Shown piece by piece: positions 2,024 through 7,665 of a DNA stretch of 16,522 bases. A program made the translations under genes and the position numbers. Origin of the DNA: a virus (taxonomy: Duplodnaviria; Heunggongvirae; Uroviricota; Caudoviricetes). The notes under the pieces are model-generated. The model made no database searches and was not told the DNA's origin. It was given only the letters and a program-made list of their open reading frames with translations. The stretch lies in IMG/VR virus record IMGVR_UViG_2548876964_000023. The stretch is one strand, 5' to 3'. Within the stretch, counting starts at the first letter, position 1, and each line of letters starts with the position of its first letter.

Positions 2024-3094
2024 TTACCCCCTGAAGCCCGGCGGAATTTCGTTATCCGGTTCAGAAATATGATTCACACAACGCTGGTTGTTCGTGCCGC
2101 TTACCGGGAGCAACCAGGGGTTCTCAAAATTCCGGTCCGGTCCAAAAAACGTCGTCGCTCGCTGAACAAATTCCGTTCCCGTTTTCCCGGTAGCCGCCAA
2201 GTATCTTGCGTAACGCCTCACGCCATCCAGCATGGCCTCTGGTGGCACCCCCTCGCGTAATCTGGCCTTCCAGGCACTGAAAGCGGATTTCTTCGGGTTT
2301 GCCCCAGCACGCAACGGGTACTCCCGCCAGACCTGTTCGAACACATCCGGATAATCCACTCGTCCCACAGACTGACCGGTGTTTTCCGGGACTACCCGAT
2401 CGGCTTCCCGCTGAATGGCGGAATCGGCTTCAGGCTGCTGAAGTTGGTGTGATTGCTCCTGCCTTGCGGTCATCACCTGCTGCACAGCGCCCGAATCGGC
2501 TTTCAGCGCATACGCTGAATCGGCTTCCGGTGTCGTGCCTGCTGGCTGACCAGGATTGACGGTCTGAACATCCCCTGCCTGGTTCGTGGCGTTTTTTACG
2601 CCATGGACCATAGTGTTTTGATCTTCTTGATCTGTATCTTTATCTGTATCTTTATCTGTCGTGACTCGTCGTGACATGTGCGTGACATTTCGTGACTCGC
2701 CGTGACAATCGCCATTTTGTTCCCGCTTTCTTTCCCTCTCTCGCTGCGCCCTCTTGCGCTCTGCCGGAGATTTTGCGGTTTGCGAAATATTGCCGTTGTC
2801 CTCTTTCAGCACCTGGCGTTTTTCCCATCCAGTGATTAAATCACCATCAAGTACCCGCCCCTGCATCGTCTGCAAAATTGAATCAATTACCTCTTCTGTC
2901 ACGTCGAGCGCACTTGCCAAATCTTCTGTCGTGACATCAATGTGACCTCGCGTGACATTTCGTGACGCGCTCACCAGGAGGTGGATATACACTGCCATCA
3001 CTGTTGCAATTGGCTGCCCTGACACCCTGGCAATTGTTCGCCACTTAGGGTCATTTGGCATGTCATGCCATAATCTGAGCCAGGCGTTAGCCAT
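2024..3094 (-). CDS. Phage replication initiation / replisome-organizer protein (lambda O-like), with an internal acidic TDKD repeat linker
   Basis: N-terminus (M)ANAWLRLWHDMPNDPKWRTIARVSG resembles the N-terminal domain of phage replisome organizers. Position after the Cro-like and CII-like genes matches lambda O. Two iteron arrays lie inside the gene. Start may be GTG 3100 or ATG 3094 (GAGG upstream). Confidence 0.7.
   Translation of the reverse strand: MANAWLRLWHDMPNDPKWRTIARVSGQPIATVMAVYIHLLVSASRNVTRGHIDVTTEDLASALDVTEEVIDSILQTMQGRVLDGDLITGWEKRQVLKEDNGNISQTAKSPAERKRAQRERERKREQNGDCHGESRNVTHMSRRVTTDKDTDKDTDQEDQNTMVHGVKNATNQAGDVQTVNPGQPAGTTPEADSAYALKADSGAVQQVMTARQEQSHQLQQPEADSAIQREADRVVPENTGQSVGRVDYPDVFEQVWREYPLRAGANPKKSAFSAWKARLREGVPPEAMLDGVRRYARYLAATGKTGTEFVQRATTFFGPDRNFENPWLLPVSGTNNQRCVNHISEPDNEIPPGFRG
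2631..2706. repeat. Origin-like repeat block inside the replication gene: tandem 12-bp TCTGTATCTTTA x2, then five CGTGAC iterons at 10-11 bp spacing (2660, 2670, 2681, 2691, 2701)
   Basis: Direct repeats read from the sequence; helical-turn phasing is typical of initiator-binding iterons. Confidence 0.55.
2898..2966. repeat. Second iteron cluster: CGTGAC/TGTGAC at 2930, 2941, 2951, 2961 plus an inverted copy GTCACG at 2898; GCGTGACATTTCGTGAC is duplicated from 2680-2696
   Basis: Direct and inverted repeats read from the sequence. Confidence 0.5.
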
Positions 3095-3165
3095 ACTCAC
3101 CTCTTCTGATACCGAATCTTTTTACTCACGAGTTGCCGGAAGCGATTCGATACGGCTATTGTCAG

Positions 3166-3591
3166 TCAATGTACTGCCACAGCATTTCCTGCCGGGCCAC
3201 CACGGTTCATCTGATTGAAACCGGCGATTGCCACTGCGACAAAATCATCAGCGTCTCTCACCAGTCGCTCCCGCGTCTCCACCAGCTCCCGAAAATAAGC
3301 TGAACTGTGGCTGCGCATTCTGGCCACCAGCAAAGGTGGCATTGCCTTTTCGATCGCTGGTAACAACGCCTGAATTTTTTCAACTGCATCAGGGGTGTCT
3401 TTCTCTACCCAGCGGAAAATTTTCTGGGTATTGCGAGCCAGGGCTTCCGGATGGCTGTCGTCATACAGTTCAGGAAACGTCATACCCAACTCAAAATAAG
3501 CCTGGGTTATTCCAGCTGCTGGAACTTTTTCGCCATCAGGACGCGCCCAGGCATTCATCGCCATGCGGATGTGTTCATGCTTGATTTTCAT
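3166..3591 (-). CDS. YdaT-like (CII-like) prophage regulatory protein (141 aa)
   Basis: N-terminus MKIKHEH... and size match my recollection of the Rac YdaT family; sits immediately downstream of the Cro-like gene with a 17-nt overlap; AGGAG Shine-Dalgarno. Confidence 0.6.
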   Translation of the reverse strand: MKIKHEHIRMAMNAWARPDGEKVPAAGITQAYFELGMTFPELYDDSHPEALARNTQKIFRWVEKDTPDAVEKIQALLPAIEKAMPPLLVARMRSHSSAYFRELVETRERLVRDADDFVAVAIAGFNQMNRGGPAGNAVAVH

Positions 3592-3856
3592 GAATCAAGC
3601 TCCTAGTAAGTGGTTGTGTTAACGTTTTGGTATCTTCCAGCTCGGGCCAAATATTCATCCAATCAAAAGGCCTTAGTTGCTGACGTGTAACTTCACCATT
3701 ACTGGCTCGCTCAATAAGGACACATAACGATGCCCCTAACATTTGACCTTTACTCAATGCCTTTCTTAGATAACCGATGCTAGTACCACACTCACATGCA
3801 AACATACGCTGTTCATCTGACGAAAGAGAATTGAGAAATATTCTTAATTCTTCCAT
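3575..3856 (-). CDS. Cro/YdaS-like HTH transcriptional regulator (93 aa), functional analogue of DicC
   Basis: HTH-like segment CGTSIGYLRKALSKGQ...; AAGGAG Shine-Dalgarno 6-7 nt upstream; divergent from the repressor gene across an operator-containing intergenic region. Confidence 0.65.
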   Translation of the reverse strand: MEELRIFLNSLSSDEQRMFACECGTSIGYLRKALSKGQMLGASLCVLIERASNGEVTRQQLRPFDWMNIWPELEDTKTLTQPLTRSLIHENQA

Positions 3857-3885
3857 AGCTACTCCTTAGTAAACACAGCAAGAAT

Positions 3886-3920
3886 ACCCACAGGTAAACA
3901 AAAGTCAATACCCTTGGGTT
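3886..3920. promoter_or_regulatory. Operator-like pair between the cro-like and repressor genes: TACCCACAGGTA (3886-3897) and TACCCTTGGGTT (3909-3920), centres 23 bp apart
   Basis: Imperfect inverted repeats sharing the consensus TACCC-NN-GGGTA with the perfect palindromes at 4418-4455. Confidence 0.5.
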
Positions 3921-3955
3921 GTTTACCTTGCGGTAATCGCATCTATTATTTACCT

Positions 3956-4375
3956 ATGGACAAATATGAATTTAGACGACAACAACTCATCAAAATTCGT
4001 GATGAGAAATGCGATGGTAAAGCGGTTAACGTGGCCAGAAAGATCGGTCGCGAGCCTTCTTATGTATCAAGAATGTTGTACCCAGAGGGGAAAAAAGGAA
4101 AAAAACGGATCGCTGATGATATGGTGGAGATTATAGAAGAGTCCTTTGGGTTACCCCGGGGATGGATGGATGGTATCGTTTCATCATCAACGAACACAGC
4201 CTCCAATTATGAAACAAGGGTTCTAACGCCACGACAACGTATTTTTTTAGATCTCTTAGACGAACTGCCAGAAAGTGAAGCGGATAACTTATTAAAAACT
4301 CTTGAAGAGAAAAAACAGTATTACAATATGATCTACGAAGAAATCCGTAAAAAGAAAGCACAAAACGCATCATAA
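3956..4375 (+). CDS. DicA-like prophage repressor (HTH, no peptidase domain); probably translated from a leaderless mRNA
   Basis: Divergent from the cro-like gene. C-terminal LTPRQRIFLDLLDELPESEADNLL resembles my recollection of DicA (…LSPKELELLELFNALPESEQD…). TATTAT at 3944-3949 ends 6 nt before the ATG and there is no Shine-Dalgarno. The TTG at 3914 given in the ORF track is rejected as the start. Confidence 0.65.
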   Translation: MDKYEFRRQQLIKIRDEKCDGKAVNVARKIGREPSYVSRMLYPEGKKGKKRIADDMVEIIEESFGLPRGWMDGIVSSSTNTASNYETRVLTPRQRIFLDLLDELPESEADNLLKTLEEKKQYYNMIYEEIRKKKAQNAS

Positions 4376-4417
4376 CTCACCAAACAACCAGTCACCAGTT
4401 AAGACACATCAAAAAAT

Positions 4418-4455
4418 TACCCATGGGTATTTACTTTTTAAATACCCATGGGTAT
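4418..4455. promoter_or_regulatory. Two perfect palindromic operator-like sites, TACCCATGGGTA at 4418-4429 and ATACCCATGGGTAT at 4442-4455, centres 25 bp apart, upstream of the ydfA-dicF-dicB operon
   Basis: Perfect palindromes read from the sequence; position is analogous to lambda OL/pL. Confidence 0.55.
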
Positions 4456-4640
4456 CCTTCCTTTCATACCAACCCACCCCGTCCCACAGAACGCAGGGCA
4501 ATACTTCGAGTTACCAGGCAGTGGTCAGGGGGTAAGTAGCCAGCCCGAGGCGTAAGAACATGACGGCAGGGTTCAACTTTAATAACTATGCAGCAGGTTT
4601 TTGTTCCGCTACCCCGGCGTTAAGGGGAAATGAGGTCAGC

Positions 4641-4793
4641 ATGGATACTATCGATCTTGGCAACAGCGAATCTCTGGTATGCGGCGTGTTTCCCAACCAG
4701 GACGGTACGTTTACCGCGATGACGTATACCAAAAGTAAAACGTTTAAAACCGAAGCTGGCGCGCATCGCTGGTTAGCAAGAAACTCCGACTGA
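4641..4793 (+). CDS. ydfA: YdfA/YdaF-family small prophage protein (51 aa)
   Basis: MDTIDLGNSESLVCGVFPNQDGTFTAMTYTKSKTFKTEAG... matches my recollection of Qin YdfA; GAGG 7 nt upstream of ATG 4641. The longer ORF from 4560 is rejected. Confidence 0.6.
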   Translation: MDTIDLGNSESLVCGVFPNQDGTFTAMTYTKSKTFKTEAGAHRWLARNSD

Positions 4794-4804
4794 TGAGGTT
4801 GACG

Positions 4805-5443
4805 ATGGAATTTAAAGATTTACCTCCTTCAATCCAGGAGATTGCAGCACACACACTTCGTCATCGTCTGAACGAACTTGAATTGGAATCGGTAACGAAA
4901 AAAGACACTGATAATATGGCTCGTAATGTGCGCGATGCGTTTACCGGATTGTATTTCTGTGCGTCTATAAATAAACACGACTCAGAGAGTGTGGCAAATA
5001 AAATTGCAGAAACGACAGCGCAAAACATCAATACGAAACCAACGGAAGAAGAAATTGATCAGTTTGCTCATGATGCTGGTTTAAAAAACAAGAAAGAAAA
5101 ATCGCCATATGCGGGGAACATGTTTGTTTATGACAATCTCATCAGAATTCGTGGCGAAATTCCGGCGGAATACCTGGCAAGAGTCCATCAGGCATTGCTT
5201 AAAAATTTGGAAACAGAATTATTTGATGGCAACACTAACGGTTTCTTCATGGTATCAGGCCTTGATAAAGACTGGGATGCAGAAAAACGCTGGAATGTTG
5301 CTACATGGTTATTCAGTAACAGAGCCGCTGCACTGGAAGCTTCGGCATGTATTTGCGGCCTGTTCTTAACAGACCACAAATATAATCTGGATGTGTACAG
5401 TTATATTTACGCTGAACACGGTCCACTCTGGATTGACTGGTAA
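4805..5443 (+). CDS. Hypothetical prophage protein (213 aa)
   Basis: ORF with GAGG 6 nt upstream of ATG 4805 (alternative ATG at 4793 overlaps the ydfA stop as TGATG). No recognisable family. Confidence 0.6.
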   Translation: MEFKDLPPSIQEIAAHTLRHRLNELELESVTKKDTDNMARNVRDAFTGLYFCASINKHDSESVANKIAETTAQNINTKPTEEEIDQFAHDAGLKNKKEKSPYAGNMFVYDNLIRIRGEIPAEYLARVHQALLKNLETELFDGNTNGFFMVSGLDKDWDAEKRWNVATWLFSNRAAALEASACICGLFLTDHKYNLDVYSYIYAEHGPLWIDW

Positions 5444-5653
5444 TTATAAGGAAACACCAGCAGGGCCGCGGCGACCAACAGAACGATTAAAATCAATAAT
5501 GCCATTATAAAGGACATTATTTAATTTATCGTCGAATGCTGATTCTGTGAGCCTCAACTCTGAATGAGTTTTTAATAACCCTGATTGCCTGAGTTGATTT
5601 ACCAGGCATTCAATCTGTTTTTCAATAAGCGGATTTCTTTTTTTGTTTGGCAT
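5444..5653 (-). CDS. Hypothetical small protein (70 aa), convergent with the preceding gene
   Basis: ATG at 5653 preceded by GGAGGA at 5 nt; the stop abuts the stop of the plus-strand gene. Confidence 0.45.
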   Translation of the reverse strand: MPNKKRNPLIEKQIECLVNQLRQSGLLKTHSELRLTESAFDDKLNNVLYNGIIDFNRSVGRRGPAGVSL

Positions 5654-5990
5654 TTTATCCTCCATTGAGGTTCTGGGTTAAAAATGGAGACCAACACGCT
5701 GTCACGTGTGGTCGTGCGCCGGACACGGATAAGAATCCGGTACTGACAGTTTACTGAAAGGATATTTCCCTGAAAAGTCAGGGCATAACGCGAAAGCGTA
5801 CGGCGAAGCTCTTTCCCTTAGAAGGCTTGTCGTTAGATTTCTTCGAACGTGCGCTTCCGGTTGTGGCACTCCGCGAAATGGCGCGGCGGTAAGTATGGCG
5901 GGGTTATTCCTTCCCCGTTGAGGACACCGGGTTGTCAGGTTGACCATACGCTTAAGTGACAACCCCGCTGCAACGCCCTCTGTTATCAAT

Positions 5991-6046
5991 TTTCTGGTGA
6001 CGTTTGGCGGTATCAGTTTTACTCCGTGGCTGCTCTGCCGCCCTTT
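5991..6046 (+). ncRNA. dicF: DicF small RNA (Hfq-dependent sRNA that inhibits ftsZ translation), ending in an intrinsic terminator
   Basis: TTTCTGGTGACGTTTGGCGGTATCAGTTTTACTCCGTGGCTGCTCTGCCGCCC followed by TTTTT; near-identical to the DicF sequence as I remember it, and located immediately upstream of dicB as in Qin. Confidence 0.7.
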
Positions 6047-6223: not shown

Positions 6224-6412
6224 ATGGAAACGTTATTACCAAACGTTAATACGTCTGAAGGTTGTTTTGAAATTGGTGTCACTATCAGTAACCCTGTATT
6301 TACTGAAGATGCCATTAACAAGAGAAAACACGAACGGGAGCTATTAAATAAAATATGCATTCTTTCAATGCTGGCCCGTTTACGTCCGATACAAAAAGGA
6401 TGCTGGCAATGA
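6224..6412 (+). CDS. dicB: Cell-division inhibitor DicB (62 aa)
   Basis: METLLPNVNTSEGCFEIGVTISNPVFTEDAINKRK... matches recalled DicB; GAGGA 7 nt upstream; ATGA overlap with the next gene. Confidence 0.85.
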   Translation: METLLPNVNTSEGCFEIGVTISNPVFTEDAINKRKHERELLNKICILSMLARLRPIQKGCWQ

Positions 6413-6692: not shown

Positions 6693-7637
6693 ATGAGTAA
6701 AGTCTTTATTTGCGCCGCCATTCCGGACGAACAGGCAATAAAGGAAGAAGGTGCAGTCGCTGTAGCCACTGCCATTGAAGCCGGTGATGAATGTCGCGCC
6801 CGCGCAAAATTTCACTGGCAATTCCTGGAACATTATCCGGCTGCTCAGGACTGCGCTTATAAATTTATTGTCTGCGAGGATAAACCTGGCATACCCCGCC
6901 CTGCCCTCGATTCATGGGATGCTGAATATATGCAGGAAAACCGCTGGGATGAGGAGTCTGCTTCTTTTGTCCCGGTTGAGACTGAATCCTATCCGATGAA
7001 CGTCACTTTTGACAAGCTGGCCCCTGAAGTACAGAACGCTGTCATGGTTAAGTTCGACACATGTGAAAACATCACCGTTGATATGGTTATTAGCGCACAG
7101 GAATTGTTGCAGGAAGACATGGCAACATTCGACGGACATATCGTTGAAGCGTTGATGAAAATGCCAGAAGTTAACACCATGTATCCGGAGCTTAAGTTGC
7201 ACGCCATTGGGTGGGTTAAGCATAAATGTATTCCTGGTGCTAAATGGCCCGAAATTCAGGCAGAGATGCGCATCTGGAAAAAACGTCGCGAAGGTGAACG
7301 CAAGGAAACCGGAAAATACACGTCTGTTGTTGATCTCGCCCGCGCCAGAGCCAATCAACAGTACACTGAAAATTCAACAGGAAAAATCAGCCCGGTCATT
7401 GCTGCCATTCATCGCGAATACAAGCAGACATGGAAAACACTGGATGACGAACTGGCCTACGCTCTCTGGCCTGGTGATGTGGATGCCGGAAACATTGACG
7501 GCAGCATCCATCGCTGGGCAAAAAATGAAGTTATCGACAACGGCCGCGAAGACTGGAAGCGTATCTCGGCATCAATGCGCAAACAGCCTGATGCCCTTCG
7601 CTACGACCGCCAGACTATTTTTTGGCCTTGTCCGTGA
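6693..7637 (+). CDS. YdfE-like prophage protein (314 aa)
   Basis: ORF with GAGG 9 nt upstream; sits where ydfE lies in Qin (dicB-ydfD-ydfE-int). Assigned by synteny, not by sequence recognition. Confidence 0.65.
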   Translation: MSKVFICAAIPDEQAIKEEGAVAVATAIEAGDECRARAKFHWQFLEHYPAAQDCAYKFIVCEDKPGIPRPALDSWDAEYMQENRWDEESASFVPVETESYPMNVTFDKLAPEVQNAVMVKFDTCENITVDMVISAQELLQEDMATFDGHIVEALMKMPEVNTMYPELKLHAIGWVKHKCIPGAKWPEIQAEMRIWKKRREGERKETGKYTSVVDLARARANQQYTENSTGKISPVIAAIHREYKQTWKTLDDELAYALWPGDVDAGNIDGSIHRWAKNEVIDNGREDWKRISASMRKQPDALRYDRQTIFWPCP

Positions 7638-7665
7638 ACGTCCGATCGACATTCACAAAGACCCT

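Follow-up and report, generated by a model that had tools for sequence, protein, structure and literature searches.

What are the short palindromes that stand on both sides of a repressor gene in what appears to be a degraded lambdoid prophage, and which protein would read them? The DNA concerned, here called the window, is the whole of a 16,522-nucleotide stretch from a Caudoviricetes virus (IMG/VR record IMGVR_UViG_2548876964_000023). In it a gene for a 139-residue repressor lies divergent from a cro-like gene and is followed by the operon that leads from ydfA to the small RNA gene dicF and the cell-division inhibitor gene dicB. The answer favoured here, to which a probability of roughly 0.87 is given, is that the palindromes would be operators of the adjacent repressor, disposed like the right and left operators (OR and OL) of phage lambda, with one repressor acting on both the early genes and the dicF/dicB operon. 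A preliminary description of this DNA had put forward control of the cro side and of the ydfA-dicF-dicB operon by one repressor in this lambda-like manner, and the idea is supported by the offsets of the sites in 24 loci and in phage mEp043, by a double dissociation between the two domains of the repressor, by the palindromes that other immunity alleles have in the same places, and by the overlap of the sites with promoter hexamers.

Five palindromes around one repressor gene

Direct reading and a pattern scan give five palindromic sites around the repressor gene, three upstream of it, between the divergent genes, and two downstream. They are set out here with the putative promoters that they overlap, which are named after the rightward (PR), leftward (PL) and repressor-maintenance (PRM) promoters of lambda.

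3885-3896: OR1-like operator, TACCCACAGGTA; exact match to TACC-N4-GGTA, in the spacer of the leftward-reading PR-like promoter and overlapping its -10
3909-3920: OR2-like operator, TACCCTTGGGTT; one mismatch to the pattern, abutting the PR-like -35 and just 5' of the PRM-like -35
3924-3935: OR3-like operator, TACCTTGCGGTA; exact match, over the -35 and spacer of the PRM-like promoter
4418-4429: OL2-like operator, TACCCATGGGTA; exact match and perfect palindrome, abutting the PL-like -35
4443-4454: OL1-like operator, TACCCATGGGTA; exact match and perfect palindrome, in the PL-like spacer and overlapping the -10
3881-3908, minus strand: PR-like promoter for the cro-like, cII-like and replication genes; -35 TTGACT, 16-nt spacer, -10 TATTCT, 9/12 matches in a promoter scan
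3922-3949, plus strand: PRM-like promoter for the repressor gene; -35 TTTACC, 16-nt spacer, -10 TATTAT, 9/12 matches in the scan
4430-4458, plus strand: PL-like promoter (the dicBp equivalent); -35 TTTACT, 17-nt spacer, -10 TATCCT, 8/12 matches, placed by eye

The arms are constant and the central four base pairs (bp) variable, the motif being wTACC-N4-GGTAw and the palindromes 12-16 bp long. Relative to the repressor ATG the upstream sites have offsets of -71, -47 and -32, with the OR2-like site centred ~41 bp 5' of it, and the downstream sites follow the repressor stop codon by 43-79 bp. The preliminary description had four sites bracketing the gene; they are real, and one more, TACCTTGCGGTA at 3924-3935, had been overlooked. 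Its perfect palindromes at 4418-4429 and 4442-4455 are exactly there, the second (ATACCCATGGGTAT) having the OL1-like site, 4443-4454, as its core. Of the imperfect copies that it placed at 3886-3897 and 3909-3920, the latter stands and the former belongs one base to the left, at 3885-3896. It was also right about palindromic arms, though in rendering them as TACCC-NN-GGGTA it made the half-site one base too long, as what is conserved is TACC and GGTA around a variable 4-bp centre.

How readily would such a cluster arise by accident? Four exact copies of TACC-N4-GGTA occur in the whole window, all of them within 3885-4454, where shuffled sequences lead one to expect 0.12 and none of 200 shuffles reaches four. 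With up to one mismatch there are 12 against 3.55 expected (again 0/200 shuffles reach that number), and the narrower TACCC-NN-GGGTA with up to two mismatches stands out less, occurring nine times against 3.9 expected, a count reached by 6/200 shuffles. In two 50-kilobase (kb) stretches of the same host chromosome there are 26 one-mismatch sites and no exact copy, and no two sites lie within 30 bp of each other. The absence of any exact site from 100 kb of host DNA rules out a palindrome that is generic or restriction-site-like in this genome, the case that the preliminary description had named as fatal to its proposal and against which both the shuffles and the host DNA speak.

The three OR-like sites overlap the two promoters, at 3881-3908 on the minus strand and 3922-3949 on the plus strand, that the scan found with its threshold of 9/12 consensus matches. 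The two perfect sites lie on the candidate promoter at 4430-4458, which is downstream of the repressor gene and reads away from it, and on that disposition they would correspond to the OL/PL of a lambdoid phage. Six nt separate the PRM-like -10, TATTAT, from the repressor ATG, and 3944-3958 has no Shine-Dalgarno sequence, so the repressor mRNA is probably leaderless, as is known for the mRNAs of lambda cI and paaR2 (PMC8630535).

The footprint and the domain that goes with it

If the sites matter they should persist where the repressor does. A scan of one genome per species showed relatives of the repressor to be encoded at 23 loci in ~20 genera, including Yersinia, Arsenophonus, Edwardsiella, Klebsiella, Brenneria, Leclercia, Aeromonas, Paraburkholderia, Herbaspirillum, Alcaligenes and Stenotrophomonas. 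Repressor similarity is mostly limited to the first 72-100 residues, and in almost all 23 loci there are TACC-N4-GGTA sites at -72/-47/-32 from the repressor start codon. The equivalent of site 1 is at -72 to -75 from the ATG in 23/23, that of site 2 at -47 to -50 in 15 (its last position always T or C) and that of site 3 at -32 to -35 in 20; over the 250 bp that precede the repressor gene site density is 9.4/kb, against 0.54/kb elsewhere in the same loci. A MAFFT alignment of 18 of the intergenic regions, made free of any pattern, has as invariant features the TACC and G-TA of site 1, CAATACC (the leftward -35 with the left arm of site 2), the TTAC of site 3 and the ATG; in it GTCAAT, the reverse complement of the PR-like -35, is kept across the family, and a TAGAAT-like hexamer is kept at the same distance from the ATG across the 18 loci.

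The downstream pair, spaced 25 bp in the window, recurs in mEp043 and, with a spacing of 25-26 bp, in 14 of the 23 genomic loci, where a TTGAC/TTTAC-like hexamer comes directly after its first site. Phage mEp043 (NC_019706) is a functional lambdoid phage and has TACC-N4-GGTA sites at -72/-47/-32 from its cI, while its downstream pair (at 3596 and 3621 of locus L030) brackets an annotated 'putative PL' (3608-3636) 5' of the antiterminator gene N. The scan of related prophages that the preliminary description had suggested as a check has found the same palindrome arms at the same offsets in the 23 loci and mEp043. Five Klebsiella loci (L010, L012, L014, L015 and L016; ~1430-1500, and +900 to +980) have S24-type homologs whose genes are accompanied by a downstream pair and by sites at -73 and -33, the middle site being absent; with no Cro homolog upstream either, the module is laid out differently there.

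What in a protein of 139 residues could do the reading? Its layout is an N-terminal helix-turn-helix (HTH) domain of residues ~1-75, a disordered linker of 76-87 and a DicA-type helical C-terminal domain of ~88-139. The repressor has no Pfam family, no HTH model at E <= 0.01 and no PF00717. Its AlphaFold model has a predicted local distance difference test (pLDDT) value of 85 overall; residues 1-70, where it exceeds 90, form helices at 3-18, 23-30, 34-40 and 54-63, and the C-terminal domain is a helical hairpin. Compared over 66-73 residues, the N-terminal domain fits C.Esp1396I, NHTF and lambda repressor to within 2.1-3.5 Å and, going by the model, can confidently be taken for an XRE-type HTH domain. 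(The only PDB sequence matches, weak and non-significant ones to ADAR1 Z-alpha at E = 0.075, were dropped in favour of the fold comparison.) Residues 1-75 are 40-85% identical to the N-termini of many S24-peptidase (LexA-family) CI repressors of 220-240 residues, which is the length of the N-domain homologs that carry PF00717. Helix 3 (PSYVSRM) and the basic loop following it are invariant or nearly so in 28 homologs. The C-terminal part has other relatives: the NCBIfam DicA model (NF007257) matches residues 84-136 only, at 24.1 bits against a cut-off of 101 and so short of membership of that subfamily, and BLASTP aligns 46 C-terminal residues with K-12 DicA at 33% identity. The protein does not qualify as an S24 peptidase, having no PF00717 match and a C-terminus modelled as two helices. 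To call the repressor DicA-like, as had been done, is apt for the C-terminal ~50 residues and misleading for the DNA-binding domain, which is unrelated to that of DicA and common to S24-type CI proteins such as mEp043 cI.

That division of the protein permits a double dissociation. mEp043 cI has only residues 1-86 in common with the window repressor (65% identity) and an S24-type C-terminus, yet its operators and their offsets are those of the window; the L003 repressor has only the C-terminal domain in common, and there is no such site in 795 bp of its locus. The intergenic regions of Qin, the prophage with dicA itself, also lack any TACC-N4-GGTA site, and the window sites do not match the DicA operator (Oc TTGTTAGTCATAACTAACAA). 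Operator identity hence follows the N-terminal domain and not the DicA-like C-terminal one. As is characteristic of an immunity region, the operators are allele-specific and co-vary with the DNA-binding domain of the repressor, both in the double dissociation and across five other alleles, and we infer that this domain binds them.

Two side observations concern the repressor gene itself. As a domain chimera (window 3956-4375 compared with L030 2501-3187 and L003 2023-2442) it exemplifies the same specificity domain with two different induction-sensing modules. At 4087-4106 it contains runs of six and seven A (GGGGAAAAAAGGAAAAAAAC, KKGKK), and P0005, P0009, P0013, P0016 and P0019 fuse the +1-frame open reading frame (ORF) at 3966-4136 (MNLDDNNSSKFVM...) to the repressor frame near these runs; such fusions are either frameshifted repressor alleles or homopolymer sequencing errors.

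How do other repressors in the same chromosomal setting fare? With window 3400-4900 as a 1.5-kb query, 4358 of 5426 complete E. coli genomes have sequences matching parts of it and 821 (about 15%) have >=80% of it; the remaining matching genomes keep the ydaT flank and the ydfA leader, and differ in the repressor/cro cassette between. The alleles compared had a LexA-type CI, a repressor of RacR type and two other HTH repressors, and the dicA-dicC of K-12 Qin was added. Each of these four and Qin has its own palindromes repeated in both intergenic regions (for instance TAGGCATAGCCTA for RacR and TGTTAGTCATGGCTAA for DicA), and the order operator, -35, operator, -10 is common to all, one palindrome abutting the -35 and one being in the spacer/-10. 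In every allele the -35/-10 pair is at nearly the same distance from the shared leader, the other alleles having stronger promoters at the equivalent place, such as TTGACA-17-TATAGT in the RacR allele. Homology between alleles resumes at ~4464 (RacR allele) or ~4474 (L002, L003), 6-16 nt past the -10, and judging by these alignments that is about where transcription would begin; as it resumes only after the -10, the promoter and operators are part of the immunity cassette and the transcribed leader is part of the cargo. In prophages of the same allele the OL1-like and OR2-like variants are altered at central bases only, with the arms fixed; the OR3-like site is the most variable, its right arm having G to A in L031 and L033. 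In L033 (2058-4223; E. coli 10035210-2) the same allele, operator pair and first ~100 nt of the leader are joined to the Rac-type cargo ydaF, sieB and kilR, with the consequence that the cassette there is wired to a different cell-division inhibitor.

Competing accounts of the sites

Might the downstream pair owe its existence to RNA rather than to a DNA-binding protein? On that account 4418-4454 is mainly an intrinsic, possibly bidirectional, terminator of the repressor transcript which insulates the dicB operon, and its palindromic halves are incidental. A terminator scan does flag 4418-4454 on both strands, the stem being of 16 bp, the loop of 5 nt and the tails rich in T; 4376-4417, which leads from the repressor stop codon to the pair, has no separate hairpin where alleles L005 (2545-2578) and L002 (2677-2693) have one; and two same-allele substitutions preserve pairing by way of G-U on the plus strand. 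However, two identical palindromes always give such a hairpin, with no need of separate selection, the plus-strand tail UCCUUCCUUU is a poor U-tract, and in 13 related loci the arms are kept while the centres are not mutually complementary and the hairpin has only -5 to -19 kcal/mol. Left unexplained besides are the three upstream sites, the fixed 25-bp spacing around a -35 hexamer and the co-variation with the DNA-binding domain. This makes termination as the main function decidedly improbable, and as the hairpin is not conserved among related loci, such a role would be at most secondary.

A second account keeps the operators and changes the reader, to the Cro-like (YdaS-type) protein or another factor encoded in the module. 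In 19 of the 23 genomic loci a homolog of the Cro-like protein, at 42-73% identity, is encoded beside that of the repressor, and mEp043 has one at 73%, so that the Cro-like gene travels with the operators, and in CP-933P YdaS and PaaR2 both footprint the same region (PMC8630535). Two co-inherited DNA-binding proteins are inseparable by comparison alone. Still, the five Klebsiella loci described above keep the operator sites and the downstream pair with no Cro homolog in the fetched flanks, 1.5 kb upstream, which argues that the repressor by itself is enough to maintain the sites. To our knowledge, every lambdoid switch characterised so far has one set of operators for repressor and Cro, and a Cro reading is in that light an addition more than an alternative; by analogy with lambda and CP-933P the sites are probably used by the Cro-like protein too. 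The cII-like YdaT, a candidate for the other factor, was rejected, its flanking gene being nearly identical across alleles whose palindromes differ. That the Cro-like protein or such a factor reads the sites in place of the 139-residue protein is very unlikely. As for the palindromes being chance or generic repeats of no regulatory role, for example ones built around NcoI sites, the CCATGG in both perfect copies and the weak enrichment of the narrower pattern at up to two mismatches count for next to nothing against the footprint in 23 loci, the MAFFT alignment, the shuffles (four exact arm matches where 0.12 are expected) and the empty 100 kb of host background, the more so as homologs keep the arms and vary the centre, so that CCATGG is not the conserved part, and the notion is refuted.

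What weighs against operators of the adjacent repressor? In most loci the Cro-like gene and the repressor domain are inherited together, and comparison alone cannot apportion the constraint on the sites between the two proteins. The two OL sites form a stable hairpin, its RNA folding at -24.5 kcal/mol (z = -6.3), which leaves room for the terminator account. The position matrix of the sites, which likewise has fixed arms and a variable centre, is partly circular, the sites having been collected by pattern, and the unbiased alignment lifts that concern for OR and not for OL. The PL-like promoter, with its 8/12 matches, is below the scan threshold and was not called by the scan. Read-through from it to dicB is plausible on the sequence, with a minus-strand ORF (5444-5665) standing between ydfA and dicF. 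Finally, a full-text literature search that covers few subscription journals found no publication on these operators, on the operator strings or on the mEp043 operators, which is absence of evidence only.

The proposed switch, its setting and its known relatives

The 1.5-kb query is 100% identical to a prophage in E. coli E2863, beside tRNA-Ser and mtfA. The other features of the region are these.

2024-3100, minus strand: replication-initiator-like ORF
3166-3591, minus strand: cII-like (YdaT-type) gene, downstream of the cro-like gene; Pfam YdaT_toxin E = 7.3e-10, PHROG 163 'CII-like transcriptional activator' E = 3.4e-45
3575-3856, minus strand: cro-like (YdaS-type) gene, divergent from the repressor gene; Pfam YdaS_toxin 25.9 bits, below cut-off, and PHROG 35 'transcriptional repressor'
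3956-4375, plus strand: repressor gene, 139 residues; PHROG 5736 'transcriptional regulator' E = 4.7e-70, RefSeq label 'hypothetical protein'
4464-4640, plus strand: 5' leader of the ydfA operon, common to all immunity alleles examined and the start of the cargo module
4641-4793, plus strand: ydfA (DUF1391), first gene of the PL-like operon; Pfam DUF1391 E = 6.5e-28, RefSeq annotation
4793-5443, plus strand: 216-residue ORF
5444-5665, minus strand: ORF between the 216-residue ORF and dicF, with a promoter-like site at 5681-5652
5992-6043, plus strand: DicF small RNA; Rfam RF00039, 75 bits against a gathering score of 48
6224-6412, plus strand: dicB, cell-division inhibitor; ORF present, RefSeq annotation of the 100% identical E. 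coli E2863 locus

The gene context that had been proposed from the letters alone, divergent cro-like and repressor genes with ydfA, dicF and dicB downstream, is borne out by the ORFs, Pfam, Rfam and RefSeq, and a divergent repressor/cro-like pair with a cII-like gene after cro (PHROG 5736, 35 and 163) is what a lambdoid immunity region has. The plus strand from 4600 to DicF's own terminator at 6026-6041 has no predicted terminator-like site, for which reason a transcript from ~4465 could reach dicF and dicB. The minus-strand ORF at 5444-5665 stands where K-12 has ydfB-ydfC, and could cause convergent transcription in the PL-like operon.

Several smaller things attach to the leader, which is ~180 nt long (4464-4640) and occurs very widely in E. 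coli. A start at the in-frame ATG at 4560 would lengthen ydfA to 77 residues. The possibility of 4464-4645 being a structured RNA (put/nut-like, or a riboswitch) was rejected, as its folding is no better than that of shuffles (z = +0.81). A permissive Rfam search of 4380-4700 gave no bacterial or phage family; matches set aside were spurious ones to microRNA hairpins on the OL palindrome 4418-4454 and a weak one to TLS-PK6 at 4548-4580. Further along, at ~6693-9080 (L001 9294-11681), RefSeq has an exonuclease pseudogene and an integrase pseudogene with a 27-nt overlap, beside tRNA-Ser, so that the prophage is degraded at that end. There are tRNAs at 9137-9223 (minus strand) and 10215-10287 (plus strand), with a second integrase gene after tRNA-Asn.

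How, then, would the switch work? The region would be the immunity region, the lysis-lysogeny switch, of a degraded lambdoid prophage in which the 139-residue repressor would most likely bind the five palindromes as a dimer, through its N-terminal HTH. With OR1 and OR2 occupied, the cro-like, cII-like and replication genes would be off. Lambda repressor activates its own promoter from a position like that of OR2 here, and activation of the repressor's promoter from OR2 may be expected likewise, while OR3, over the -35 of that promoter, would bring about autorepression at a high repressor level. OL2 and OL1 on the rightward promoter would silence the transcript, beginning near 4465, that runs from ydfA to dicF/dicB, and so keep the division inhibitors off. 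As the C-terminus is of DicA type with no S24 peptidase domain, an antirepressor or a flip of the Cro/repressor switch, and not RecA-mediated cleavage, would be expected to bring about release; for DicA itself derepression by antirepressor or by such a flip has been described (PMC10448788).

What does this add? The architecture is already established (Qin DicA/dicBp, CP-933P), and the accepted picture of lambdoid switches is unchanged; the TACC-N4-GGTA specificity, the five-site map and the Pfam-invisible reading domain appear to be undescribed. A putative operator, wTACC-N4-GGTAw, and its map of five sites are assigned to a repressor labelled 'hypothetical protein' that is carried by ~821 of 5426 complete E. 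coli genomes. The DNA-binding domain, undetected by Pfam, would define an immunity group that extends from Enterobacterales to Burkholderiales and Xanthomonadales with arms and geometry unchanged. It is also a case of domain shuffling, in which one specificity domain is coupled to either an SOS-cleavable S24 domain or a DicA-type one. For E. coli there is a prediction as to what controls dicF/dicB in these strains, and as to which superinfecting phages would be shut out or would engage in cross-talk. More tentatively, and with the odds rather against it, the prophage might provide constitutive, SOS-proof immunity to mEp043-type phages, since the recognition helix and the operator arms are identical to those of mEp043 and the C-terminal domain is of the non-cleavable DicA type; in the same doubtful category are derepression of dicF/dicB by a phage Cro and a second function of the perfect 37-bp OL palindrome in ending the repressor transcript. 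mEp043 for its part is presumably SOS-inducible, having the S24 domain.

Which known systems does it most resemble? The dicA-dicC region of Qin is like a lambdoid immunity locus in which dicBp, 5' of ydfA, is the counterpart of PL and is repressed by DicA via operators at the equivalent position (PMC10448788, PMC3441716), the account of dicA-dicC-dicBp being that of Bejar et al. 1988 as cited in PMC10448788. The window is like Qin in its divergent cro-like and repressor genes followed, right after the repressor gene, by a promoter for ydfA...dicF-dicB, in having one operator 5' of the -35 and one in the spacer/-10, and in a short repressor without an S24 domain and with a homologous C-terminal segment. 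It differs in its N-terminal DNA-binding domain and operator, which are unrelated to those of DicA with its Oc TTGTTAGTCATAACTAACAA, and in a longer leader before ydfA. RacR also has multiple operators, in the racR-ydaS region (PMC11879457). In CP-933P, of E. coli O157:H7, OR has been footprinted with PaaR2 and with YdaS, which also regulate a PL, and the switch has been shown to be bistable (PMC8630535). That cryptic lambdoid prophage has in common with the window cro and cII genes of ydaS/ydaT type, a leaderless repressor mRNA, and PRM, PR and PL with operators. Its own are a repeat consensus GTTTAGTAA, four inverted repeats at OR, three sites at OL, and co-transcription of the repressor with a ParE toxin-antitoxin pair that is absent from the window.

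For the chain as a whole the best Foldseek match is Rep of Salmonella phage SPC32H (PDB 5d50/5d4z; E = 8e-4), likewise a short repressor made up of an HTH at the N-terminus and a helical domain at the C-terminus, and one that is inactivated by an antirepressor and not by cleavage; sequence identity is 16-24%, and no antirepressor was identified in the window. The 933W repressor has five natural binding sites and a 15-bp consensus operator (PMC3317979). The total of five is as in the window, whereas the N-terminal domain is non-homologous (there was no tblastn match to 933W among 36 phage records) and the operator consensus is different. Tyler and colleagues are said to have found in 2004 that the 933W sites are split three at OR and two at OL.

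The reading domain is shared by mEp043 cI (gp50), with the N-domain 65% identical over residues 1-86, helix 3 identical, a Cro 73% identical and the same layout of sites; it departs from the window in its S24 (LexA-type) C-terminal domain, which predicts SOS inducibility, and in a PL operon that starts with antiterminator N in place of ydfA-dicB. Lambda has three OL sites, a 17-bp operator, ~2.4 kb between OR and OL, and a cleavable S24 repressor. The window resembles it in three sites between divergent repressor and cro genes, in further sites at a downstream promoter in the orientation of the repressor, in the ~24-25 bp between adjacent sites, in an OR2 placed to activate PRM and in a probably leaderless repressor mRNA, and differs in having two OL sites, a 12-16 bp operator with TACC arms, 15 bp between OR2 and OR3, ~0.5 kb between OR and OL, and a repressor without the cleavable S24 domain.

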